From positions 2,046,001-2,110,000 of the forward strand of contig JAYWIR010000020.1 in NCBI GenBank assembly GCA_036172245.1: DNA of 64,000 bases, given 5' to 3'. This document shows positions 1 through 64,000 of this stretch, in pieces. The DNA is from Raillietiella orientalis (taxonomy: Eukaryota). A model generated the notes under the pieces. That model was not told where the DNA came from. It worked only from the letters and a program-made list of their open reading frames with translations, and made no database searches. How positions within the stretch are numbered: position 1 is the stretch's first letter; every line of letters starts with the position of its first letter. The translations under genes and the position numbers were made by a program.

Positions 1-87
1 TTCTCAGCATTATACAGAGGTGCTCATATCCTGACAAAGATACCAAGAGGGATGAAATCTGGCTCAGAGCACACCAGAGGTAGGGGG

Positions 88-89
<2 letters not shown>

Positions 90-123
<34 letters not shown>
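90..123. repeat. (GA)n microsatellite preceded by a G-run
   Basis: Directly visible (ga)n tract. Confidence 0.9.
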
Positions 124-127
<4 letters not shown>

Positions 128-995
128 ACGAAAACAGTCACTTGTTATCCTTCTGCATAGCGGAGAAACGCAGCTGAGATCTTCCCAGTATGCGAAGCAA
201 GAAATGAGGAACGAGGTTTCCAATGGAGTCTGTAAAATTTTAATCTTGCATCTTCGATTGCATAAATCAGTAACGGTTTGTTCACACCGATAAAGCAGGC
301 ACTTTTTGTGGCAGTTCTGCGCCGCTGGTGCGCATTCAGTTAAAGAACAGACGGTTTGTTTTTGTTTTTTCTGTCCCCCACCCACCCCATCTAAAGAACA
401 ACTTCAAAAGCAAGTGGTGAGCAGTGAAAACAACTCGCATTGTGTGCTGCGAAGGTTCCGTCATGCAGAGTTTTCGTCCCACAAACATCGGAATGAAAGC
501 CAACAGAAACCGGAAATGAGCAAGCACCCCCGGAAAAAGAAAACGAAAAGGTGTATCCTTCCTCAGGACTCGGTTCGTTTGCAATCACGGACTCTCAGAT
601 CACCGGGGTGGTGAAAGGATTGTGTGTTCCTCCTCTCCGTCCCGGAAACGGTGCCGTAAGCGCGGAAAAACTTTAGCACGCAAACTGCAACGAAAAAGGA
701 CGGGGAAACTGCAAGTTGCTGAATGGAGGGGGCAGAGAGACGCGGTGACCCCCGCAAGCAGCCACGGATTCTTGATGATGATTGAAATCAAATAGCAACA
801 AACGTATCGAACTCGAAGATGCACACGCCCTTTTGTGTTCGTCTCCCCGTCCCTGGAACCTGAGGTGTACTCGTGCTGGCATCGTTCCTGATGAAACAAA
901 TGGACTCGAAAGTTGAGATCCGTATCTTCTCTTCGACGAAACTGAGGCTGGAAACAATTTCTGGAAAGTATCACGGTGCGGCGCCGCGAACGGAA

Positions 996-1028
<33 letters not shown>

Positions 1029-1408
1029 CAGAAGCCATCACTCAGAGTAACGACTTGGCGAAGAGGCGCACATTCCTCCTGATCCGGAAGGTCGTGACGA
1101 GCAGCCTGGAAAAAGGGAGAGCGGGCGCGGAACGCACGCGCGCCATCGGATTGAGCATTCGGACCCGTTTTTCGGCGGGACGGCTCCGCCGCCCGTGCTG
1201 AGAGTGAGGTGGGCACTTTGGAAACGCGAAGGAAGGGAGGAGAGGGGGAGGGAACAGAATGGTTAATACAGAGGATTTTCAAGAGATGGCAGGAAACCGC
1301 AGACTGACGAGCTCGTGCTGCTCACTCCTCTCATCAGGCACGCACCGCTCGGATAGAATCGAAAGCCTTAAACAGAAACAAAGTGTCAAGACGTCAAAGA
1401 TCTTTGCA

Positions 1409-1491
1409 GCATCACCATCACCACCACCATGATCATCGTCATCACCGCAACCATCACCATCACCATCGCCATCATCATCACCGTCATCATC
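1409..1491. repeat. Degenerate (CAT/CAC)n trinucleotide repeat
   Basis: Reads as poly-His on + and Asp/Gly on -, with no supporting gene context. Confidence 0.75.
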
Positions 1492-2049
1492 GGTAGCATT
1501 ACTGCTCTTACCCAGGAACTCCGGATATAGGACTCCGGGTATCATTACTGAAGATTAAAGCATGAACAGCGGACATCCTTTATGAGAATGCTGTTGAGCG
1601 GAAAATAAGCCTAATACGTTGCCGGACTATTGAGATCCAGTGATTCACACCAAGAAATCCGGAGAATCGATGATGATCTTGAGAAAATTCTGTTGGGTGA
1701 TCGTCACGTTGAGGGTGAGCGTATCCCAAGGACGGGTGTGTGTTGCCACCTCTTCGAGTTCGGATAACGCAGGAATGAGCTGAGAATCCTCCCCCCCCCC
1801 TCTCCTTCCTCAACTTGACCGAGGAGGTTTCCGTGATCCCTGCTTTCGCCGGCTTTCGAGGACGTCCTGTCCTTCACGACAGGACCTTCTTCCGTCTCCC
1901 CCTGGTGAAACCAGCGTGGTATCAACTTTCACCCCGAGGTTGCAGCTGCGAGCAGCTGTTGGACTGCCGGAACGTGGGGTCGCGGGAGGAGACCATGAGA
2001 CGTTCCTACTGGATCGGTAGGCAAGAACGTGCGAGCTCACCCAGAGCGT

Positions 2050-2420
2050 GGAAGGAGAGGAAAGAACCCCCACCACCTCCGGATGATCGAGAAGGGAAGC
2101 GTGGTCTCCATGGCAGCCTAGAAGAGAGCCACCACTACAGAGCCCACCGTACAAATTCGACTACTCGAAAGGGGGATGCACATCTCATGCACATGCAGCT
2201 TGGTCGAAATGCACATCCTCCCGATACCAGGAGCGACCGAAGTCTCCTCAATGGAGTTCTGGGAGAGGACGTCCGTTCGTGGCAATCGCAGCAGCCTCGA
2301 GCCACGAAACATCTTCATCCCGGTCATCTTTCCGGACCCCATCGCTTCCGCCTTCATCGAAGTGCAGAGACTTCCCGTGTAGCAGCGGCGAACGCGTGCT
2401 TCGAGTACAGCGGTCAGGGA
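2050..2420 (-). mobile_element. Possible decayed Ty3/Gypsy integrase core fragment
   Basis: The minus frame, broken by stops, reads SLHFD..VSWLEAAAIA..VHFDQ..PFE*SNLYGGLC..LLG..DHPEVVG. This parallels the integrase pattern HID..SKWLEA..HSDQG..FES.LF..LC.LLG...YHPQSNG. Motif recognition only. Confidence 0.3.
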
Positions 2421-2614
2421 GAGCAGCGCGAAGTGGAAATCTACCATCGCGTGGATGTCGGCACATGAGACAAGGAGCGCAGGATGTTCAGACAAGACAA
2501 ACAGACACAGCAGACAGACGGTCAGTAGTCATCGGCCCTGGTTCCACGGTCCAGCCGCGAGAAGAACGTAGGGCAACACCGCCGTGCGGCGTAGGTTAGA
2601 GTTCCTCCCGCGAG

Positions 2615-2710
2615 ATGACGCTGGTTGGCCTACATGCATTCGGGTGAGGCGCTGGTAGCAGTTCAAACAGGATGCTTCCATGAGCGGCCGGGATTGGGAG
2701 TCGACCTTCC
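2615..2710 (+). mobile_element. Decayed LTR-retrotransposon RNase H N-terminal fragment
   Basis: LAYMHSGEALVAVQT, then after frameshifts DASMSG..LG. Resembles the LAY.D....VQTDAS..GLG motif. Confidence 0.4.
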
Positions 2711-2889
2711 GAGATCCTTCAAGCAAACATCATCATCGCCGTCTTCGTCGTCGTCGTCGGCGGCGGCGGCGGCACAGATGCCCACTGGACGAAAAGACAA
2801 AGAGAATATTGAAAGTAGTTGTGTAGTGTTTACCATGTACGGCTAGAAGAGGAAGCAGCTGTCCACACCCTCACCCCAGTTTTCCTTAA

Positions 2890-3005
2890 CGGTGGCTCGG
2901 AAAGCGCTCGAGTCGGTTGCAGGCGGCGGAATGCGCGAGGCTGGAGTCGATTGTTACCCGGGAAACGGTTTCAACCCGAAGAAGTGCAAATCCTTTTGGG
3001 TTCTT
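2890..3005 (+). mobile_element. Possible decayed reverse-transcriptase fragment
   Basis: ALESV..MREAGVD....FNPKKCKSF resembles L..V...LREAGL.LNP.KC.F. Confidence 0.3.
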
Positions 3006-4059
3006 CTGCCTTCGCCACTTTTCTTCCAGTTTCCCTTTTTTCTTTTCTTTTCTTTTCAGGTTTTTTTTTTTTTTTTCTGTTTTACCAAGTGCCGAAGAAC
3101 CGTTAGATTCCTTAGGGGGAAGCTCACGAAGATCCTTTAAAGACCTCAGCAACGCAACCGCCAACACGGGCTCCTGGAGTTTCGACTTCGGAAGCTGCTG
3201 GAACACACGGACTCTCCGTCCGTCTTCCCGGTCCTCCTGCTCTCCAGCTAGAGCGACGCGCTGCTTCGTGCTTTGCTTTTTCCCTCAGCGGGCAGCACGC
3301 GCACCGCGCGCGCCTGCGGAGAGGGACGCAAGGCAGGAAGACATCCCGAGATCCCGGCTCTTCGTCACTCACTAAGAGTTGGCTCTGGAGGCATGCAGGG
3401 AGGAGCTGCCTACCTTGCCAAGCCCTTTCCCCGGCACGCACCGGCTGGCCCCTCGTCCACACCCGCCTCGGAGGAGCGGGAGCGCACGCGCCTGTCGATC
3501 GCTCCTGTTGGCGCGGCGAGAAGTGGACTAGAGGTCACTTGTTGTCAGAGGTCGCGGGTGATCCTCACGGGTGGGCGCGCCGAGTGCCACGCACGAGCTC
3601 CTCCCAGCCCGTTTCAGCTGCCTCTCGAAGGCGGAGTCAGGCGCCCGGACCGCTCCGAGACAGCAGGCGACTCTCGATGGAATGGAGACCCGCGGCGTGG
3701 AACGCCTCTCGTAGCTCCCTTCCCCTTCCGTCCATGGTCTTTTGTTCTCCTTGACCTCAAGAGTGTCGAAAACAGGCAGCAGACATCCTGAAAAAGGGGG
3801 CACCGCGGAAGATTCCTAGTCCGACTTGAAGTCTCGGCCTTCGCGCGATAGGGAGAATGGAGCTCCAGCTCCAGCTTAGAAGATTTGCACGGATGACCAG
3901 ATAGGTGCTAGGTGCCATCGCGCCTACTCCTAAGACAGATCGAAGGCCGACTGTGAAGGGAGGTTAGCGACTCTGGTACAGCACAGCCACCAGGTCCTGG
4001 AAGGACACATTTTTTCCACTTCGGTCGTCGCGACAAGGAAGAACACTCGCTGGTTTCTC

Positions 4060-4200
4060 CACAGGCTGCCGTGCCCTGCCGCAGCAGAGAGCTCGACGCC
4101 TCCGCGCTTTCCCTGACGCGACAGCAGCGTTCGACCACGCTGCTGCGGCACTGGGGGGTTCCCGTGCACCTCAGCACGGACAGAGTGTGGCCTCAGGCTG
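4060..4200 (+). mobile_element. Possible decayed LTR integrase fragment
   Basis: LLRHWGVPVHLSTD resembles the integrase motif F.RWGVP..L.TD.GPQ. Confidence 0.35.
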
Positions 4201-5209
4201 CTCCACAGCGGACAGCGAGTGAAAAATCCCTTCCCGCTCACGCTTGTGAATTGAGCGAATCTGACCTGACTCCGCGCGACGTGATCGTGTCGCGGAAAGA
4301 GCACGGCGCGAGACAGGAACTCCGTTCCCATGACTGCCTCCTCCTTGAAGATGACAAGATCACACCAAGGAGATGAGGGTGGGCATTCTGCAGAAGACCC
4401 CAGAACGGTGGCACTTTCCCTCCGCATGAACAGTTATAAATTTATTTTTATTTTATTTTTTTCATTTCTTATTTTGGTACCCCTTCTCCTCTTTCCCCGA
4501 GGAGATCCTTACTGACAAGTGAGCTGGCTTCACCCATTGTCAGCACCCAGAATTCCTTGGACTTGGACAAACACTACTGTCCTACGATGCAGTTCTTTTT
4601 TTTTTCCTATCTCATTTCATTGTATTTTTTTTTGTATGTTGTCAGAGGTCGCAATGAGGGTCTCAGAGTAACCGGGTGCCAGTCCGTTTGGTATTGTGCA
4701 ACTAACGGCTCGTCTTGGCCTTGGTAACAGCCCGTGTAACCATTCGACAGGTCCAGCGCGGAGCACAAGTCGGCCCGAGAGGCAGCACGTCAAACGGAAA
4801 GGTAGGGGATGCATAATGTTGGCTCATTACGGCCCGCACGCGGCTGCCTCGTCGGACCGCTGGGCGTGGCTCCGCCAAGACCGCACGATGCAGCAGCCCA
4901 CCACCGCTCGAGTCGGAGCGTTTCCAAGTCGACGCCAAACTCCGTGCACGGCGTGTGTCGCGTAGGGGACGGCTCCGGGAGACAGGCACGCGAGCGGGCG
5001 GTGAAGCCCCGCGGGAGCAGCACATCTACGTACCAAGGGAAGTATTTTGGCGCTCCCGGCTTGCTCGGTTTGGATAGAGAGATGGCAGCAGCATTCGCCC
5101 CACAAGTCGGGAAGGCAGCGGTCGACTCCGTAGAGGTAATGGGGAACCTGCCCCGCTCGAAAATCGAGGAGTATCCCATCCAGCGAACCCTGGTTTGTAC
5201 TTACACTCG

Positions 5210-5447
5210 ACTCGCTTACTTTGATAAAATCAGAAATTTTCATTTTATCATCCCTTATAAATTTCTGTTCTAGTAAAACAACTTCTTCATAGTATTTAGC
5301 CATTCGACCATCTACTATTTTCTTCGTCACTTCTTCAGGTTTATTTACGCTTTTTACCTGTTCTTCAATTATAGAGCGTTCATTGTTCAACTTTGCTTGA
5401 TCTAAGTCATCTGTAGAGAGAGAGCTTCCGGGCTTCATAGCAACTAC
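5210..5447 (-). pseudogene. tsf: Fragment of bacterial elongation factor Ts, Wolbachia-like (nuclear endosymbiont insertion)
   Basis: Minus frame reads VVAMKP..LSTDDLDQAKLNNERSIIEEQVKSVNKPEEVTKKIVDGRMAKYYEEVVLLEQKFIRDDKMKISDFIK. This is the EF-Ts C-terminal region and is near-identical to Wolbachia EF-Ts as I recall it. It is an AT-rich island in GC-rich flanks, is truncated at both ends, and has compensating indels near KPGSSLS. Confidence 0.85.
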
Positions 5448-5529
5448 GGGTTCGCGGGTGATCAACGTTGGTGGATGGGAAAGCAGCGTGGACTTTGCCG
5501 GCGCAGAGTAGGAAGTTCTAGCCCGTGGC

Positions 5530-5549
5530 GTTGTTGTTGTTGTTGTTGT
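5530..5549. repeat. (TTG)n microsatellite abutting the right inverted repeat
   Basis: gttgttgttgttgttgttgt. Confidence 0.85.
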
Positions 5550-8500
5550 AGGTGCAAACCAGGGTTCGTTGGATGGGATGCTCCTCTTCTCGATTTTCGA
5601 GCGGGGCAGGTTCCCCATTACCGAATCGCAATCTGCAAGCCAAATAGTTGACAAAGATGCAGAGTGAGAGAAGATTCTGTTAAACTTATTAGGCTCCTGT
5701 TTGGGCACGGAGAACCAGTGAACAAAAACGGCGTGGATGCTGTGAACCTCCACGATCAGTTTCAGAATGCTTTGCAAAACAGCTTGACATTGAAGTGTGC
5801 AAATTGTGGATTTCCAAAGTGTTCTTGCGCGATTATCTAACCGTTTCAGTGGTTTTGTGGAATATCTTTCCTGATGACGAAGCACAAGCCTTCCCGGAGC
5901 AGAGCTTGGAGGAAAAAGGGAATCTAAATTCTGAAACACTTTGTATCTAAGAGCACAAGCAAAGAAAGTGGATCAAAAGACTTCCGAGAGCAGGTGCTTG
6001 CGCTTCTAGATGTGAGCTTTTCTTTGAAATACCATGATCCAACGATGGGAAGAGTTAATTTAGGAGTGGTTTTTGAATTCAAAGGAGACTTGAAGAATAA
6101 GTTCACCAGTGGAGGACCGTAAAAATGAGGGGGAGCAACGTAGTACGAAGCCGCCTTTTCTTTAAGGCCATTGCCGATTGGATTCATCGGATTTGGGGCT
6201 CGTGTTATCCTTATTTCTTGCTTTCCTTTTATAACTTGCTGGCGTATTTCTCAGTAGTTGCAAAAGGTGAAACGATGTTTATTTGTGGCAACCTTTGAGT
6301 CTCGTCCGATAGCTCAGGCACAGGAAAAATGCATTGCTCCAAGAAACAGCCGCAGTTCCAGAAACAATTGAATTCCCGATCATTCCGAGACTTCTGAAAG
6401 GCCTGGAGGCTAGAAATTCAGTGAGCAACTTACGGAAATGAAACAGAGATATCAAAGACGAAAACATCGAAAAGACTGGTGGATACGTCCATTCAACCTT
6501 AAGCTCTGAAGCTGTTAACAATCTTTCACATCCTTCCAGCAGCGCCCTCATGACCTGCTCCAAGTCCAACACTTTTGTTTCAGAACCAAGTTTTTATTGC
6601 TTACGTTTCAGAAATGATTCTCTGGGAAAGAAATTGGATTTGCGCAGTTCCAACCTTTGGAAGCCGAGGTGCATTCCATTTGGCAACATTTTTATATGCG
6701 TTTGTTTACACCATAAGTACAAGATATACAATAAAGTACACTTCGCAATGATAGCTTTCAGAGTTTTTCCAGTTCTTCTTGAATACAACATAAGTCATCT
6801 TGGGTTAAGCATGACTCATCTATGAAAATCGAGGTTCTTTTCAGAGGGGGAAACAGGGAGCGGATCCCTTACAGAGGTCCTTCTGGGAAGCAAATGACGC
6901 CTGGATCCTTCCGAGAGATGTCTCCGGAGATAATAAGGAAGAATTTTCCTTCGGGGTTCTCTACCAAGCGCGAGAGGAACGGACTCCTTCCTCTGGAGCC
7001 TTCCTGGGTTCATAGAGAGACCTCGAAGGGACCACCCTTCTTACAGATATAAGAATAGCGCCTTCTTACGGAAGTTTCTAAGATACATAAACCGAATAAA
7101 AGTCTTAAATGTCCCTTTCCAAGTTTAAGTAACTATGGAGATTTAAAGCTCGGATTTGAAGGACAGCAATTTCTGCAACACAGCGACAGGCACCATGTGG
7201 ATACTAACTATATTTGCAGTTTTAAGAATAATTTGTTGGAAGCACAGTTCAGATCGCCTCTGAAAAAAGTTTCAATCATTCTTGACATCGACAGGCCAAG
7301 TGCTTGCGAAATATTTAGAAAAGCCATCCGGAGGAACGTTCCCTTTTCCATTGGAATAAATGGATTTATGCAAATTTGAATTTTCAGAAACGACCATACT
7401 ATGAACATCGAAAGCGGAACACGACAGTGGCCTTCTGGAATAGTACACCTTGAGTGGAATCCAGAAAGAAAATTAAGCAAGAAAATGTATCCCGCACAAA
7501 TTTTTTATTTTTGCATTGGTTTTATTAAACAAGAACTAGATAGCATAAAAGGCTTTCTTACTTCAGGGAACATGTATAAGGACCAATGTTTCAAATGAAC
7601 GAATAAATCAGAGAAGGAGTGTGAATTTAATAACTCAGGATCGCTTTTATATATACATTCCGCCCTTTTGTGAGTTTGGATCTCACTGATGACTGCAAAT
7701 TTGGAGTCAACCATTAATTCATAACATTAAGTCAACCATTTAACATTCATTAAGCAGTTCCTTAAAAGAAATTAAAATTTCCAGGAAGAGCAGAATGGAA
7801 GAACGAAATCAACCCAACCTCACTGGATGAGTAATAGCACTATAGGAAATGAATGTCAAGTGTACAGACTATGAAAATCTACAGCCAACAAAAAGTGAGA
7901 TTACTACACTGTGAGTGCTCTGTTCGTAAAGAATAAGAGTGATGAAAGTGCTCCGGAGGAAGTAGTCACATGATCCGTCACAACAAAAATATAATCCTAC
8001 AATTAAGTTTTCTATCTGAAAGGATAGACTAGTTTCCTCTTTTCCTCTACAAAAGAATGTGAACCATAATTGGGATTGACTAGATTTGATCGTTTTCGAT
8101 CATTTTGAAGTCAAGAAATTCATCATTAGTGCGATGACCATCGCAGATCAAATGCAAATCAAAACAAAATCAGAATGAATGGAACAGTACATGATGCTGT
8201 ACATTTATTCAAATAATCAGGACTTGGAGTGAGGTGAACCGTGGCCTATTCTGAAAACATATTTACATTGGTGACGTACCTTATTTCACAATATTTATTG
8301 TGAAGTTATTGTGCTGCCGTCATGTCATTCATCAGTTGAATATAGGGAATGTTAAATGCTGTCACACATTACTCTAAAGTGTTGATCAAAATGCTAACGA
8401 GATGAAACACTACGTCCAATTTTTTCACTTCCTAAAAGCTCCACGAAAATTATTTCCGCATGGAAAAACCGCAAAACTACAAATTTGATATTTCTGATAT

Positions 8501-16022: not shown

Positions 16023-16061
16023 CTGCATTTTGCCAATAAATTCTTTATTGGCAAAATGCAG
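16023..16061. repeat. Perfect inverted repeat (18-bp arms, 3-nt loop)
   Basis: ctgcattttgccaataaa-ttc-tttattggcaaaatgcag. Confidence 0.9.
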
Positions 16062-18956: not shown

Positions 18957-19029
18957 TGGAGGCGCCGGGTATCGATCCCGGTACCTCTCGCATGCTAAGC
19001 GAGCGCTCTACCATCTGAGCTACGCCCCC
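18957..19029 (-). tRNA. tRNA-Ala (anticodon AGC)
   Basis: GGGGGCGTAGCTCAGATGGTAGAGCGCTCGCTTAGCATGCGAGAGGTACCGGGATCGATACCCGGCGCCTCCA, 73 nt. Cloverleaf intact, no encoded CCA, and a Pol III T5 terminator a few nt downstream (18947-18951). Confidence 0.97.
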
Positions 19030-31400: not shown

Positions 31401-32267
31401 CTTTGCTCGTGTTGCTTCTTCCAGGAAGTTAAAAGTTTCCATTTTTGTTGGAAAGTATTTCCACAGTTTGATTGATTGAATTCCTAAACTGAGATCGGCA
31501 GTACATCTTGCATTGTAGTACTGCTATTTTCCATTGTCTCTTTAAGTTGTTGGTTCATCATCATGACTGCATCTTTCGAAAGTTTCTCTGAATCGTCAGC
31601 TGTTTACAGAAGCAAAGTGAAAGATAAAGGAACTCTCATTGAGAGCACACTAAATGGTTGCAAATCGGAGAAAGGAAATCTAAGATGCCTTGGGTGCGAA
31701 TCCTATCAGACGAATAACAAAAGATGAGAAAGCACTCGTAGCTTGGGTGGTGAAGTCTTCCTGTCTGCTTTTGGTTCTCGATGACTTTTGGTTTCGAAAG
31801 ATAGCAGTGGAAGTAATGGAAAATCTTCATCTTTCGCTATGCTCCTGTAAACGACTGAGGATTGCGAGAAACTTTCGAAGATGCAATCATGGTGATGACT
31901 CAACAGAATTCAGAGATTCATTTCTTGCAGCAATTTTGTTGAACTCCGGGACGCTACATTCGCTTAGTACATTTTATGGAAAGATTATTTACGGCTACAT
32001 TTTATGTCAATGTGCTAATACAATGGTGCGAGCTCCAATCTTCAAAAAGGAAAATTCTGATAAATGTCGATTAAAAAAAATTCACGTTGAATGTGAGTGA
32101 GTTTTCTAAAGTCATGGTATGAATTTTAAACGAAATACAATTTGCCTCACGATGTGCATAGAAAGTTCAGGCGAATGAAGTGCGTGTTTTTGGGAATGAG
32201 GGTTCAAATGCGGGGAAACGCATGAGCATCGCTCCTCTGGAAAGAAGACCGCGTGCATACGTGATTT

Positions 32268-33520: not shown

Positions 33521-34029
33521 TCCATTTTACCGCGAGGCGTCCCGTTTGATTTCGACGTTATCTGAGGTCTACCAAACGTAGACTTGAACGGAAGATGCAC
33601 GGAAGCTTCACCTATTAGCTGCTGTACCTTTATTTGGCGTCAAATTTTCTTTTTACACATACCTGATCGAACTAAATCACAGTATTGCTTGCATGGGCTC
33701 TTTTCTGGAAGTAACGCTTTCATGAAAAACAAATCGGAACCGAATATTAACAAAATGTTTAGTACCTTTCGAAGAAGTATTCAACAACTACTTGGGATCA
33801 ACGTCATCCAATATTTGGAGACTGAGACTGACTTTCAATACATTTAAAGCTTTGTAATGCCGAGAATTCATCAACCAATTAATGTAAGATTTTTCAAAAG
33901 AAAATGATTACCCAAACGTGATTACCCAAAGTGCATTCTGAAGCCGGAATCCTTATGGAAACAAGAGGAATCATGCTGGGAGAATTCCATATAAATACGA
34001 AACCGCCTCTGTTTGCTTGGACAAGAATG

Positions 34030-34062
34030 TTGTTATTTCTGGTTTACAACCAGAAATAACAA
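34030..34062. repeat. Perfect inverted repeat (15-bp arms, 3-nt loop)
   Basis: ttgttatttctggtt-tac-aaccagaaataacaa. Confidence 0.9.
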
Positions 34063-37000
34063 AGTTCTAAACATTTCTGGTTCTAAAACAACTTTTTGGA
34101 CAATTGCTAAGACAACACATCTACAAATTATTGCACATAGCCATACACGGCAAATGAAAGATAATGTGTCTTGTATTGAATAAAAACGGCACTTCTGTTT
34201 TGAACAGATTGTTTAAAAACATTTTTTTTTTTACTATTGCTGCTACAGTCTTTTGAATCAAATGTGGAGTCTACAAATGGGATTTCGCCATCCAGAAACA
34301 AGTTACATTAGTCAAGGATGGAATCATGGATCAGAGCATTGCTGTACCAAATGCGATCATCATTGCATTTCCGCAACCATTATTTATGGGGAAAGTCCAA
34401 ACTCAGCTTTTGAATGATCCTGGTCAGAATCAACAGCAATCATCTGCTCACTGATGGGTGCAGTCTTTGCATTGGTGCTAATGTAATCTTTGCAATATCA
34501 AGGTTTTGATTTTGCAAAGGTAATGGATCATTCTCTTGAAGATGAGGTGTATTAGCTGCTTGCAGAGTTAAACATCGCGTGGAACCTACTTTTCGAGTTC
34601 CAAAGTCTCATTCCTCTCATCCCTAAAACTCATTTGTGGTATTTGTAAAATGAACCAATTTCTCACAAAGTCCTCCTTTTTGCCAGTTATACTGTCACGC
34701 TTAAGGATTTTTGTTTGTGTTTGATTTCTTGCAAACAGCTGTGTAGCATGGGAGACTAACTTCAAGTTTTTCAAATAATAGGGGAAAGGGGGGGGTACAT
34801 AGCAGATCAAAGCAAATGTAGTCATTATCTCTGACATTTGGTGGAGTATCAAGCATAATTGCAAGGTAATATATGCATTAAAAAATTAATAATGCTTACA
34901 AAAACATTTTCCAACAAATACTATAGAAATGCATGTTTTTTTAAATTTTATTCATCCCTGCATTTCAATTTCTGTGGTAATCTAAGTAATTTCTTGGTCC
35001 TGTACTTTCAGTCTGCAGATCATACTGGGCAGCAGTTAAAACTTTTAATTCTTCATTCAAAAACTTCTTGCAGAAGCTTGAAGCAAACACATGTAAACAT
35101 ACACACACATTTGCAAATCTCCCATGAATAATGCTTTAAAAAAATGGGATCTGTTTTAAAACAAAGTTATCTGAAGCAAACTAATTAACTTCCTCAGATT
35201 GAACCTTAAGTGTGACTCCTTATATTGCATATCCCCCCTACTGTATCCTATGTTGTATATAAAATAGGCCCACTAGATTTCAGCCTGTTTCCATTTGGGC
35301 GAATTAGGTTTGTACATTATACTAGAATTCGAGAATAGTGATGTAAACTACAAAATTATACAAGTACTTTCACATCTCATTCTATTTACAAGGCACTTCA
35401 TTCCTCATGCTAAATCAATGATGTACACAGAACTTAAATATTGAATGAATCAAGTATACTAAAACAGACACTCTGCCTTGTGTCTGAAACTTCACTCAAA
35501 TATTTACTTGTAAGTATCCCTGATGAAATATCCCAGTTACATTTGAAATCGGAAAATTTCTTTTTTCAACAAGTTTCATCATTCTACTTTAGCATTCTTG
35601 CTTGGAACTTGATTTTTGCTCTTGAACTTTTTTTTTACACACTTTTGCAAAATGACAAATACAATAGCAAAACAGCCAAAGTGATAAGAGCACAAATGTA
35701 TCATGCACAATGAATATGTGCACTAATTGATTGCTCAGCCCTTGCAATATGCAACATATGTAATTTGTTTTTGTCCTAGTGCACTTCATTACTAATTTGC
35801 AATTTTTCTTACAAGAACTTGGTGAACTGCATTTAAGGTTTCAAGTATAGTGGGCAATATTTCTATCCATAGCTACAAGCAGTTGCCTCAAACAGCCATT
35901 TTTGCCAACTTGATTAACTAAATTAAGGAGTGAATTTCCAATTATTTATTTTAGAGATAACTAAATTAGCAACTTGGCATGAATTTTGACACAAGTATAT
36001 GCAACTAACTATTGAGAAACTGTTTGTTGTGAGAATTCAGAGAGCAGAAAGACATGAATCAGTAAAAGCTGGCTGTGGAATCAAAGGAAAGAGAAGAAAG
36101 AAGTGCACAAAATCAGGCTTCCTGTCTGTTGTGGTTGCATATATCTCATTAAATGAGATGGTGTGCCAAATAAGTGAAGAAAATCCTGACTATTTTGTCA
36201 ACTAGGTTTTGTGCTTAAAGATCTGTCCCAAATAAATAACCTGATCCAATTAACCAAAGGCCAAGGGAACAGAATCCACTGTTTTAGCTTTTATTTGCTT
36301 TTCTTCATGCCTTCATTTTTCTGTGCGCTTGTATGTATCTACTAAAATGGCAAAAAATTAATGTTTTAAAGATTGAATTATATTTAGCTTTGAAAGAATT
36401 TCTGATTCACAATTCAATTTCTGATTAGCTTGAGTAACACGAAGTTGAAATTAATTAACTTGTCACCACTTAAATTAAACACTTCACTCTCAAAAGCACA
36501 GCTGGATTACTTATATTTTTTCAAAGCTGTAATTTCATTGCAGATAACCACTCCCAGATCTTATGAATTACGAGTTAATTATCTACATTAGATATGTAGA
36601 TAATTATTGAAAAAAATTGATTTTAAAAAATTAAAACTAAAAGAGATTACATTTTGGTCTAAGTAGATCCCATTGCTAACCAATTATACAGGCAAACGAA
36701 ACAGTTTAAAGTACAGTAGATGACTAATAGTCAATAATACAACAGGTGCAAAAAAATTAACTTCAAGATAATAAAGAGTTGAGATGAGAAGTTATCCAAA
36801 ATAATGACAAAGTTAACTATGCTTATTTGTTATAATAAAACCTACTCCTACCAACTTCCAGGTATTTATGTGGCTTTTTATGGCCATGTAAAGTATCGGT
36901 AAAATTCTTATTCAACAAAGTTCCCATTTCTGGTTCAGCATCCTACTGCCTCCAGTAATACTTCTACTTCTAAATAACCTTTCATCAGTCACACCAGCAT

Positions 37001-50300: not shown

Positions 50301-51041
50301 TAAAGTTAGTTTCCTATAAACATTTCCACCTTCTTCCAAATAATTTTGAAGTAAGGTAACATCATTAAGAACTATACCCAGGCAGGCACTTAACCATCTA
50401 ATATCATCTTCATGTAAACTGAAATTTGATTTATTCAATAACCATTCTCGAATATAATTTCTATTATGTAGATTTTCTGCATCACACTGACTTAACCATC
50501 TGTTATCGTCTTTCGAAAGAGAAAAATGCTTTGGTATAAGCTGAGGGGAAAGTCTACACTGACAGTCTTCTGATATAACGTTTTCATCACTTCCAGTTTT
50601 ATTCTCACGATCTTTAGGTTGTAAACACATGACACATTTTCGTGATTTTGGCCAATTTTCATAAGTACATCTATTGCATATCCACTTTTTGGAAGGACAC
50701 TTCAAATCCAAGGATTCTGATGGATGTGTTTCTTTGCTTGCAGCAATGCTACCTATATTTACTTTATTTTTTAGGGATTCTGTAAGAACAACAAGTGAAT
50801 CTTCATTTATAGAGTCATTTTTTTCAGCCAAGATGACACACTGGCAATCATTACCATTGCAAGCAAAATCTTTTGTTTTACACATATTTGAATCACTATT
50901 AATTATAAGCTTTTCATTGCAATTGTTAACTTCTTCCGCCTCATTGAATTTAACAACACGTGGATTGCAACAAATGGTGCATTTTCTACTGTTAGGCCAG
51001 TTTTCATAGGTACAATGTATGCATGCCCATTTCTCACTCAT
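47336..51041 (-). CDS. ZRANB1: Ubiquitin thioesterase TRABID/ZRANB1 (NZF, ankyrin and OTU domains), 5 exons, about 641 aa
   Basis: Two W.C..CTYENWP...KC..C NZF fingers, SLVHLAIK ankyrin, and OTU catalytic LWNRTAGDCLLDS and YTRGHFSALV. Introns: 48593-50229, 48335-48392, 48100-48143, 47982-48022. Confidence 0.95.
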
Positions 51042-54000
51042 GCTTTCAAACTAAAATGGAATGAAAAACAATTTTTCGATTACACAAATCAACAGATTCA
51101 GCAGAATAATGAAGACATAGAACAAACAAGCAAATGAGTGCAATCAGCATGCATTCAATACTTTTCTTAAATGCAATTATTCTACTAAATTATTCTCTGA
51201 TTTGCGATCTTGTTCTTATTTATAGCAACTATTCTGTTTAACATATTTTTCGATCTCTATTATTTACTACACTTTACATTGAGAGCAAATAATCACTAAT
51301 GAAACCATTTGGATAAGCCAAAGATGGTCTCACATTACTAATCATTTTATTTCATTTCTTTACGGTTCTTTCCATTCTCTCGCCTCAGACACACTTTGGG
51401 CATTTATCTTAAAAATGTTGTAAATTCTTAATGTCTCTTTTACTCTTTTATGGCTATTCAATTTTTAAAAAACTGAGTCAACATACAGGTATTTGTAATA
51501 TCTACTTTAATACGCATCTCTCCGTCCAAAACGGCACATTTACGTTTTCACGCAATCGTTAAATTCAACTACAAAATGGGATAAGGTTAATGTAACCACA
51601 AAATTGGGATGCACCACGAGTTCTTCAAAAATGCATCAATAAATCTCAAAAACGAATTGTTCTTCAAAATGAAAATTCGTGGTAATTTACGCACGAAACA
51701 TTTATCTTAATGACATACTGCAAAAAAAAATGCATAGCACTTCTACTTGTATTCATATGATGGAGTATTTTATTTCCTTTGAGAATGATCAAAATATATT
51801 TTTTATGTAAACACCTCTTTTACTGAGAAAAATGGAATCTCACCGAGAATTCTATCACTCTGTTAACATATACACCCTTCACACGATCTCAACAAGAAAT
51901 TATGCATTTAAGCTGATTTAAATTTAAAACCATGCTGTACTACGCCGTGTCTCACAGGCAAATATGCATGCAAGCTGAAAATAAAATGCTCACTACCTCT
52001 GAACATCTGGGAATTCAATACCAGTATCAAACAAGGAAGATAAATCACAATCATACGTAAAAAAAAATTTTTTTTTTCGTAGAATACTTTTCTGTAATTC
52101 TCCTACATTTCAAATATCAGCTTCTCTTATGACATTAGTGCAATTACTAAATCGCTAATCTCAAATTAATCGTAGTTTAGCAATGAGAAGAAATTTAGCA
52201 TAGCATGCATAGTGGACTTCAAATTTAAAGTATGATTTGTTCCCATCCATCCATGCATTCTCATTTCTCATTCATACTTCCAAACTAAAATTAAATTAAA
52301 AAATTCTTTCAAACACCAATTCGATATTTTCTTATGCATTGAATTCTTATGAAAAGAGATTTATCATAGATGACTCATAATTTATAATATTCAGTTTTGC
52401 TTGCAATAAGGAGCATTTCAATAACTCTCTCAGCGTAAATTCCTAAAGATAGCCAAATTTTTTAAAATGTGAAATTCTAGGAAATTATAGTGTTTTAATT
52501 GCTATATTAAACACAGCACAAGATCTACTGTCGATTTTATTATGCTGCAATGTTGACATAGCATAATGAAACTAAAAATGTTGTATATGCTTTCAACATC
52601 TACATAACTAAGAACTTGACTCCTTGAAACTGTTACTTTTTACGATAATCAAGGAAACACTAGGAAATTTTAACTTCAGTAATAATAATAGTTCAACTCT
52701 GATACGAAAGCACTCTTCAATAGTCTTCCTCTGGTGTTAAATGATGCTTTTCAAATCATGTGATTTATGAGATAGATACTAATTATTCATTGTTTAAAAT
52801 TGATTCCATCAATACTGCTCACATTATCGTCAAGTTTTAATTTTTTAAATGCAACTCTGCCACAGCATAGAAACTGAAAGAATATTTCAAGATAAATACT
52901 ATTTTTTGTTTTGGTTAATATTATGTGCTTAATTAGTAGAATTCAATCAAACACCCATAAATAAGTTATCATGTTAATGATGCAAAAATGCATTTATCAA
53001 TTAATGTTTTTGCTAAAAGCAAAAGGTTTAAATAGCTTGCAACTTGGAATATTTTTTTTTTAAATCAAACAATAATCTCAATATGAATTCGAATTTTAAA
53101 AGATTAAGTGAAAGATTTTTCCACAGTGATGAAGGATGGAAAATGATATGTATTCGAACTCAGTATAAAGTTTAACAGAAATGAGAAGTAACTGTTATGT
53201 TTTCAGTTTCATCTGTTTCTTAATCAAAACTAGATATCCAAAAGACACTGAAGCCAAAAAAACACTGAGCGATTATATACCGTTAACTTTAAATTATTAT
53301 AACGGAAGCATGCAATGATGAAGAGTCGAATAAGCATAAAGAGTGTTTGAAAGATTTATTTCTCACTAATGTCGCCCTTCAAGATCAGAAAGGAAGGTGG
53401 TTTATGATGCTCATCCAGAAATTGGTTACTATGATACGACGAACTTTAATGAAAGAATAGTGTTAACTGGATATGACCAAAATAGGTTTAATGCTTACCT
53501 GTCATTTTCATTTCGAAAATTCGTGTTCGTTTTCAAAATGAGGGGACCTTGAAACACCTTATGCATTCCTGGTTTTCTATTGCAATCATTACTTGCTTCA
53601 ACTATGGTGCTGTTTGCGGGAGCACTAGGACGAAGATGCCAAGAAATAACCAGGTAGTAGTTGAGGATGTCTTGATTTTTCTTTATGGTTATACCTTTCT
53701 CTTAGCATCTTTTGCATTATTTTCATCAGTAAGAAAAGTTAGTTCCACAATCGAATACTTTTAATTGCATTCTAAGCATGCCATGTATATGAATAACTAA
53801 GCATTTTGGAGGTCAAGTATGTTATTCAAAATACCATGGAGATCATGTAGTTGTCTTGGATCTCATGATGTGTGGTGTTGGATTACTACTCAAGTCTCCA
53901 ACTTCTTTGGAGACCTTGATACAATACATGCATATGGCAAAAAAATAAGTGCACACACTCTAGCATTACCGAAATAGTTGATTTTCCTTTATGAAATAAG

Positions 54001-62799: not shown

Positions 62800-64000
62800 T
62801 TCTGTAAAATTAAAGGGTTGTAAGTAAGGGAAGCCCACCAATTATGTCTTAAAAGCTTAACACATAAATAGCGGGTCTAAACACGAATAGGGGTAAGATA
62901 AGGACAAGGTAATCGAGCGAATCAGTCGGTGGGAAAAGTCGTGCCCTAGACTTGCTTTATGACTTAGTATCCAGGAACTTTCTATCCCGGCATAGGAGCC
63001 CACAACAGATAGGATTCCCTCTCCAAGAGTTGTGACAAAATTGCGATTTAATTAACAGCAGATTTGCCGAAGATTTCTGCGGTCAAAGAATTTCAAACAC
63101 GGTTGCTCGTGGAACTGCAAATAAAGGACCAGTTTCTCAGTGCAGTCGTTTTACCGGGATGACGGCTTCTGGCGGTTGGGAATAAAGGCAAACTGTCTTC
63201 TCCGCACAGACTGAGTCCATTGTCAGCGACCAGAATGGATCTTGTTGTAGTCGTGGGGATCGTGGTGGACCCAGAGAATGGAATCCACTTAGTCACGAAA
63301 TCTTGCCTGAGATGCCTTGCGAACCAGAGTTCTCAGGTTTCGTCGCGCAGATGACGCAACACGCGGTTGCAGCGTGTGCGTTTTCCAGAAGCATCCGTGC
63401 TTTGGACTTCTTACAGTCGAATGAGATCGCGTATCACCACGGCTTTTCGATTTCTGGAAGGACTCGAGGAGGACCAGTTTCCAGTCCCGGGCACTCAACC
63501 GGGTCGTCCGGCTTCTACCAGTGCCGCATCCGAAGCCCGTGGGCCAACCGGCATCATCCTGAGGGAGGAACTCGCAACCACGGCGCACCCCCCATTTTCG
63601 GCGTTTCGATCCCGCACGTGGGGATTCGAACCAGCAATGCTTAGATACCATGCGGGGAGAGAGACTGCAGCCACACGGCCGGTCACCCAGACATTTGCCA
63701 ATTTTCTTAGGAGAGAGTTTGACTCAAAGGTCGCTGGCATTGTCATGGGCAAACTGAAAATGCTAAAAGGCAGTTCAAGAAATCGAAATTCACAATTGCA
63801 TTGCCTGACGAATGATGGAATCTGTGATCTTCGAGAGAAGAATAATCTCGTAAAGTGGCAGACTCACAGAGTAGGAAAGAGTCCTTTCTGGATTCTGCAA
63901 GGGAGGACCATCAATGTCACCTCCAGAGCTTCGGATGCTTCCGACTGAGCCATGCTAAGTTTTCGATTCCAACTCACAATAATCTGAATTTCTATCGAAG
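62800..64000 (-). mobile_element. GC-richer segment, possibly a decayed non-LTR retrotransposon 3' part
   Basis: Abrupt rise in GC content. The minus reading LLSKITDSIIRQA...LSPKKIG weakly resembles R2-like post-RT sequence. It may continue beyond the window. Confidence 0.25.

Follow-up and report, generated by a model that had tools for sequence, protein, structure and literature searches.

Short inserts of Wolbachia DNA are common in animal chromosomes and mostly neutral, and a single addition to this well-known class, the nuclear Wolbachia transfers (nuwts), carries little weight. The insert described here lies in a stretch of 64,000 nucleotides from Raillietiella orientalis (GenBank assembly GCA_036172245.1, contig JAYWIR010000020.1, positions 2,046,001 to 2,110,000 of the forward strand), which we call the window and in whose numbering all coordinates are given. 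It is an internal piece of tsf, the gene for EF-Ts, and is found between two inverted arms of about 70 nt in a cassette of 488 bp (5135-5622). Since its junctions are clean to the base and 4 nt are common to insert and arm at the arm edge, the locus is a good case for how symbiont DNA gets captured. The original prediction had suggested that the arms may be terminal inverted repeats (TIRs) of a family that captures symbiont DNA. If this were true, and many paired arms with varied or repeated symbiont interiors existed, the cassette would be the first demonstrated case of a eukaryotic TIR element that packages endosymbiont DNA, and would provide a new amplification route for transferred DNA. 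If the arms are single-copy, it is an ordinary nuwt at a hairpin-prone spot. Most likely, the locus is an ordinary static nuwt that sits in an inverted-repeat cassette.

Comparison with described systems

The nuwts of arthropods and nematodes likewise consist of short internal fragments of Wolbachia housekeeping genes in host nuclear DNA. With 248 bp, the fragment in the window falls within the sizes that the available part of one study gives for filarial fragments (146±84 and 183±219 bp; PMC2882956), and a supergroup-F-like source has been reported for many nuwts (PMC12693587, as far as its available text goes). The locus differs from these nuwts in that the fragment is placed exactly between two 70-nt inverted arms, and in its poorly sampled host lineage. 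Wolbachia-like fragments with inverted repeats have been described on contigs Of70 and Of71 of Onchocerca flexuosa, where the available text states repeat identities of 88% and 82.8% (PMC2882956). The window contains two inverted-repeat cassettes, whose arms are 88.2% and 82.9% identical. However, the second of these is devoid of Wolbachia DNA, and a host exon in the window has no close filarial relative. We therefore treat the numerical match with the Onchocerca contigs, as given in that part of the paper, as an unverified coincidence.

A second group of described systems are nuclear copies of mitochondrial and plastid DNA (numts and nupts), which are captured at double-strand breaks by non-homologous end-joining (NHEJ; available part of PMC2567098) or microhomology-mediated end-joining (MMEJ). 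They too are random fragments that lack a target-site duplication (TSD). Their short junction microhomology (4 nt in our case) and their extra unmatched nucleotides also have counterparts here. The differences lie in the donor, which is bacterial rather than an organelle, and in the target, which is an inverted-repeat cassette.

Transposons that capture genes, such as Pack-MULEs, Pack-CACTA elements and Helitron captures, resemble the cassette in layout alone, as a foreign gene fragment lies within TIRs. The Pack-type arrangement is present in the sense that the tsf fragment (5201-5448) lies between 5135-5205 and 5547-5622. Unlike Pack-MULEs, the cassette has no TSD of 9-11 bp, its cargo is of symbiont rather than host-gene origin, and no multi-copy family or autonomous partner has been shown. 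MULE TIRs are also longer than 100 nt, compared with the 71 and 76 nt of the arms.

MITEs (miniature inverted-repeat transposable elements) and foldback cassettes provide a closer match in form. They share with the locus a comparable size (488 bp), long inverted ends, a strong potential to form a hairpin and an internal microsatellite, and the window holds a second cassette of like size. By contrast, the cassette shows no TSD beyond a possible TA and is single-copy within the collections searched. When held against the generic definition of a MITE, it is below 800 bp, has inverted ends and lacks coding capacity of its own, the sole internal family match being the foreign EF_TS. As for a TSD and many copies, it offers a possible 2-bp TA or GA and one copy in 64 kb.

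Finally, the bacterial insertion sequence ISWpi4 with Wolbachia flanks has been proposed to have carried Wolbachia DNA into a butterfly chromosome (Miao et al. 2023, PMC10083226, seen in part). The two cases share the proposal that a mobile element with inverted ends brings Wolbachia DNA into a eukaryotic genome. They differ in that the arms of our cassette, at 54-55% GC and absent from 98 Anaplasmataceae genomes, are not Wolbachia-derived. The literature searched yielded no description of Wolbachia DNA packaged by a eukaryotic TIR element.

A Wolbachia-type tsf fragment in the window

On the minus strand, positions 5194-5429 translate without a stop into a piece of EF-Ts (Pfam EF_TS, 4.1e-20, profile positions 121-194 of 204). 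The piece covers positions 184-265 of 293 in TIGR00116 and thus corresponds to the internal 28% of the gene. At the nucleotide level the homology spans 5201-5448 (248 bp, 34.7% GC), and no stop interrupts the tsf frame in this segment. When bacterial species genomes were scanned, 45 tsf loci were obtained. The top 22 belong to Wolbachia or to Wolbachia-like metagenome-assembled genomes (MAGs) labelled 'Rickettsiales' and are 70-93% identical in amino acid sequence, whereas the remaining 23 do not exceed 50%. All 22 Wolbachia-type loci align to 5201-5448, with nucleotide identities of 74-94.7% over 245 columns. Highest among them, at 94-95%, are a Rickettsiales MAG and the Wolbachia of a cicada, of Mansonella ozzardi and of a louse. 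Maximum-likelihood inference places the fragment inside a clade of nine rows that includes the Mansonella, louse and cicada strains (support 95/96), on an end branch of 0.036. Mansonella Wolbachia has been assigned to supergroup F in the available part of PMC12693587.

The cargo is Wolbachia DNA, as the original prediction had proposed when it placed a bacterial tsf fragment between the arms. Relative to the six nearest Wolbachia, the fragment carries six private substitutions in 245 nt, which fall on codon positions 2, 2, 3, 3, 1 and 3. Its only indel is a 3-nt in-frame insertion in a CT-rich run (5423-5425, minus strand), which is absent from the nine aligned Wolbachia tsf loci, among them the six nearest.

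The limits of the homology are sharp. In the multiple alignment the similarity to Wolbachia ends after ...GTGTAA at 5201 and before CGTAGTT... at 5448. A 502-nt contig of true Wolbachia tsf from a termite gut metatranscriptome (run X1) covers 5201-5422 with nine differences. Its similarity to the window stops exactly at 5201 on one side and near 5447 on the other, and it is unlike the window beyond both points. This run, the only one found, has a share of 0.07 and says nothing on host junctions, transcription or habitat. The earlier suggestion that tsf sequence begins almost at the inner edge of the left arm holds for its start but has to be amended in extent, as the fragment is 248 bp long and about 30 nt of it extend into the apparent GC-rich filler. 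Likewise, the fragment does adjoin the left arm, yet it is not merely beside it, since it overlaps the last 5 nt of the arm.

With five whole Wolbachia genomes as queries, the segment 5201-5448 was the sole match in positions 1-60000 of the window. Among 125 open reading frames (ORFs) of at least 85 amino acids, Pfam recognised exons for NHL, acyltransferase, zf-DNL, four FANCI domains, OTU, a RanBP zinc finger and LETM1. The FANCI region has introns of about 45-55 nt. By its sequence, the remainder of the window is compact animal nuclear DNA, and the locus combines two features expected of a nuwt, derivation from Wolbachia and embedding in host nuclear DNA. A TRABID-like exon of 274 amino acids has a single database relative at E≤1e-20, with 30% identity, which indicates that the host lineage is poorly sampled.

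The inverted repeat and its junctions

The repeat search returned two adjoining inverted pairs, 5135-5171 with 5586-5622 (37 nt, 97%) and 5166-5205 with 5547-5586 (40 nt, 90%). In a global alignment, the left arm (5135-5205, plus strand, 71 nt, ~53.5-56% GC) and the reverse complement of the right arm (5547-5622, minus strand, 76 nt, 55.3% GC) show 67 matches, four mismatches and one indel of 5 nt, which is an insertion in the right arm relative to the left. The outermost 31 nt of both arms are identical. In a self-BLAST the arms form the strongest internal repeat of the window (88.2% over 76 columns, E 3e-22), and an arm 16-mer with up to three mismatches occurs twice in the window, compared with 0.04 expected occurrences. 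The inverted repeat is real and far above chance. This agrees with the two repeats of about 70 nt that had originally been noted, as do their GGTAA termini, which in full read GGTAAT.

Between the tsf fragment and the right arm lie 81 nt at 60.5% GC (5449-5529), which may be filler or the original spacer of the cassette, and a (GTT)6.7 microsatellite on the plus strand (5530-5549) that adjoins the right arm and overlaps its inner 3 nt. These are the GC-rich filler of about 80 nt and the (TTG)n tract of the first description. The filler has no match in the five Wolbachia genomes, in plasmids or phages, or in the rest of the window. We also considered that it might be a degenerate third copy of the arm. 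Its best local score against the arm was 18, compared with 14.8±2.1 (maximum 24) in 500 shuffles, so this similarity is not significant.

At the left junction arm and insert adjoin with no spacer, while on the other side about 100 nt of filler and microsatellite lie between insert and right arm. The right arm keeps ...CACCTACA, and the left arm reads ...GTACTTACA, of which TTACA is already Wolbachia sequence. The inner 5 nt of the left arm (5201-5205) are therefore also the first bases of Wolbachia origin. As the inner end of the arm, in its right-arm version, is ...CTACA and the fragment starts with TTACA, the two have 4 nt (TACA) in common.

For a TSD, all combinations of left and right boundaries up to 8 nt to either side of the repeat ends were compared. 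No direct repeat of at least 4 bp was found in this range, nor any of at least 7 bp with one mismatch or of at least 9 bp with two. The exact ends are TCCGTAGA and GAATCGCA, which match in GA/GA alone, and shifting the boundaries yields no match of 8-9 bp, in keeping with the first description. Nor do the 300-nt flanks on either side contain a common direct repeat beyond this GA/GA. With no TSD, the cassette does not qualify as a MULE (9-11 bp), Merlin (8-9 bp), hAT, piggyBac or PIF (direct TWA) element. A TA occurs inside the repeat at 5137-38 and at 5619-20, and a 2-bp TSD of the Tc1/mariner type would be possible if the element were 5139-5618.

Pairwise, the arms have diverged by 4/71 (5.6%; 95% confidence interval (CI) 1.6-13.8%), or about 2.8% per arm, and the fragment has a private divergence of 6/245 (2.4%; CI 0.9-5.3%).

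A second cassette, unrelated in sequence to the first, is found at 31548-31629 and 31825-31905. Its 82-nt arms are 82.9% identical and flank a spacer of 195 nt. It has no evident TSD, and its matches to Wolbachia within the 98 Anaplasmataceae genomes are all of 49 nt or less. The second cassette shows that inverted-repeat cassettes exist here without symbiont cargo.

Searches for further copies of the arms

No other copy of an arm, paired or solo, was found in the 64-kb window, and self-BLAST gave no other arm match above 20 nt. Equally, none of the 125 ORFs of the window contains a transposase domain. The arms were not found in the 98 Anaplasmataceae genomes, where no match exceeded 16 nt (E 0.07), and had no match in plasmids or phages. 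Their GC content of 54-55%, together with their absence from these 98 genomes, argues that the arms are not of Wolbachia origin.

In JGI metagenomes, an arm 22-mer returned two matches of 24-26 nt, of which the first falls within an ORF resembling trehalose synthase and the second about 40 nt past an ORF for an integrase-type transposase. Both lie on bacterial contigs of 62-69% GC in unrelated contexts and were judged to be chance matches. In the viral contigs of IMG/VR, neither an arm 22-mer nor an inner 25-mer had a match. An arm 20-mer did match a viral contig (L058, 64% GC), where the similarity stops at 24 nt; we regard this as chance or as a convergent GC hairpin. The same viral contig contains a perfect 30-nt palindrome four times (463-503, 528-568, 1001-1041 and 1842-1882), half of which equals the outer 15 nt of the arms.

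At the protein level, searches with arm-derived peptides covered three of the six arm reading frames. The right-arm ORF (58 amino acids) had no candidate with three common 5-residue words in a word search of 5.8 billion proteins, and the left-arm ORF (155 amino acids) had no match among 1.84 billion representatives with phmmer. These negative results on further copies are weak, because none of the collections searched is known to contain the host.

The idea that the arms are TIRs of a family capturing symbiont DNA is left without support: there is no TSD of at least 4 bp, no transposase in the window and no second copy in the collections searched. Transposon capture is unsupported by every available test, and a true cargo-carrying TIR element appears rather improbable to us.

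A predicted hairpin and a long open frame

A transcript of the cassette is predicted to fold at -216.4 kcal/mol, compared with -138.8±6.4 kcal/mol for 100 shuffled sequences (z -12.1), with the arms forming the stem. As a prediction, this bears out the long stem that had been suggested for such a transcript. The tsf piece falls in the 341-nt single-stranded loop of the predicted hairpin. Dicer-type processing acts on the double-stranded stem, which here is host or arm sequence. As the products of Dicer would come from the stem and tsf lies in the loop, the locus is no obvious source of small RNAs against Wolbachia. Rfam returned no match in the cassette; outside it, there was one sub-threshold match at 4958-5038 (E 0.29).

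On the minus strand, a frame of 381 codons without a stop (4830-5972) takes in the two arms, the filler and the tsf fragment, and coincides with the frame of tsf. No other open frame in the window is as long, the next having 274 codons. In a first-order Markov simulation of the two parts that flank the fragment in this frame, both were open in 7 of 20000 runs (3.5e-4). No evidence of function of the cassette was seen.

Possible origins of the cassette

We tentatively favour a static nuclear Wolbachia transfer, in which end-joining placed the fragment where stem and loop meet in a hairpin-prone cassette that already existed. In this model, a cassette with arms of ~70 nt and a spacer of ~100 nt, now seen as the filler and the (GTT)n tract, would have been present beforehand. 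It may have been an old MITE or foldback remnant, or have arisen by local inverted duplication. A random 248-bp internal piece of tsf, from Wolbachia of the Mansonella, louse and cicada clade, would have reached the germ-line nucleus of the host. A chromosomal break at one of the stem/loop junctions could then have been filled by this stray fragment through microhomology-assisted end-joining, using the 4-nt TACA. The symbiont DNA would thus lie between the arms because a structure of this kind breaks there, with no packaging by a transposon, and the cassette would have been static since. That the fragment represents the internal 28% of the gene fits a random scrap of DNA, comparable to the numts joined by NHEJ that are treated in the available part of PMC2567098. 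Inverted repeats are known break sites, where they are cut by structure-specific nucleases (PMC8053094, seen in part). Their fragility declines with the length of the spacer and the divergence of the arms (PMC10164571, likewise in part). The missing TSD, the second cassette with its lack of symbiont DNA, and the absence of the arms from the rest of the window, the 98 Anaplasmataceae genomes, plasmids and phages also speak for this model.

Several points weigh against this model. By the trend just cited, as far as the available part of PMC10164571 describes it, a 70-nt repeat with a spacer of ~100 nt would be a weak break site at best. The 4-nt overlap at the left junction may be a chance extension of the repeat. 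The per-arm divergence is close to that of the fragment, so a joint origin of arms and insert fits as well as older arms do. A neutral scrap does not explain the frame of 381 codons across the cassette (simulated P ~3.5e-4). Composition also drops across the cassette, from 66% GC in the CpG-rich left flank (4835-5134) to 44% in the right flank (5623-5922), a step for which no model accounts. Lastly, the order in which these events took place is inferred, as are a break at the stem/loop edge, the end-joining and the immobility.

Arms and insert may instead stem from a single repair event, a fold-back inverted duplication that involves no transposon and leaves the left arm as ordinary local sequence, although we consider this unlikely. 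Once a broken end had received the Wolbachia DNA and the filler, its 3' terminus (…GTTGTTGTA) would fold onto TACA at 5202-5205 and copy ~70 nt of its own strand, which would create the right arm as an inverted duplicate, before being ligated to the other end of the break. Such an event would fit the TGTA/TACA that the inner end of the repeat has exactly at the Wolbachia junction, the missing TSD, and arms that are unique in the window and in all collections searched. It would also agree with a per-arm divergence (~2.8%) near the private 2.4% of the fragment and with a left-arm GC content between those of the GC-rich flank and the remainder, and the second TSD-less cassette could be another product of a like process. 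On the other hand, a priming site within 5 nt of the junction between host and Wolbachia needs a coincidence, the confidence intervals of the divergences are wide, and a templated copy of 71 nt is long for filler of the polymerase-theta type. The scheme in which a family of non-autonomous DNA transposons has the arms as its TIRs, gained Wolbachia DNA via gap repair or via a nested insertion with later mobilisation, and can carry and amplify this DNA strikes us as distinctly unlikely. The cassette has the layout of a cargo-carrying MITE, with a length of 488 bp, TIRs of 71 and 76 nt whose outer 31 nt are identical, and foreign DNA from the inner edge of one arm, and the TA at 5137-38 and 5619-20 permits a TSD of the Tc1/mariner type, but in that case the additional complementary GG/CC outside the TA would be due to chance. 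The missing copies say little, as the collections searched include no host genome, host reads or close relative. In filarial genomes, nuwts are enriched near Pao LTRs and Helitrons and some groups are multi-copy (available part of PMC12693587), and inverted repeats around Wolbachia-like pieces have been called 'consistent with transposon insertion sites' (McNulty et al. 2010, PMC2882956, seen in part). Set against this are the absence of a TSD of at least 4 bp, which fails MULE, hAT, Merlin, PIF (direct TWA) and piggyBac alike, the lack of a transposase domain in the 125 ORFs and of a second arm in 64 kb, and the two protein searches, word-based and phmmer, in which no arm-derived ORF found a match. 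Less probable again is that the arms are the ends of an unclassified, possibly TA-targeting TIR family that spreads spacer-borne Wolbachia fragments by transposition.

An assembly artefact, in which a chimeric or fold-back read fused a Wolbachia contaminant to host sequence, is very improbable. The sole run found (X1) has true Wolbachia tsf and not the junctions. Against an artefact, the piece measures just 248 bp and has sequence unlike Wolbachia to its left and right, on a contig that carries eukaryotic genes, and it differs from the six nearest Wolbachia by its six private substitutions and the 3-nt insertion. Moreover, the arms differ by four substitutions and the 5-nt indel, unlike the near-perfect palindromes that result from read artefacts. 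We see scarcely any chance that the EF-Ts piece has been co-opted by an expressed chimeric gene, or by a long exon, on minus-strand 4830-5972, an explanation that would be compatible with the other readings. In its favour, the frame is the longest in the window and in frame with tsf, and the only indel of the fragment is a 3-nt one that keeps the frame. Yet all 154 matches of the ORF at E≤0.001 cover the tsf part alone, with a query coverage that does not exceed 29% in the 120 matches listed, and neither Pfam nor NCBIfam gave a match outside EF_TS. The translation beyond tsf is of low complexity, rich in Cys and Arg and does not look protein-like, and the open frame was noticed post hoc.

Other features of the window

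GC-rich blocks (48-69% GC) are located at both ends of the window, at 1-5134 and 63001-64000, while the GC content elsewhere is 29-43%. Neither block has a Pfam or NCBIfam match. We had considered whether the left block might be bacterial DNA and rejected this, as its ORFs have no NCBIfam and no Pfam match. An inverted similarity of 78 nt (77%) connects 2584-2661 with 63512-63588. Two near-palindromes are present at 16023-16061 (39 nt, 92% self-complementary) and 34024-34068 (45 nt, 84%), and a direct repeat of 50 nt with 84% identity (52253-52302 and 51019-51068) is located near the TRABID-like exon. The sole Rfam or ARAGORN match in the window at the gathering score is a tRNA-Ala (AGC) on the minus strand at 18957-19029.

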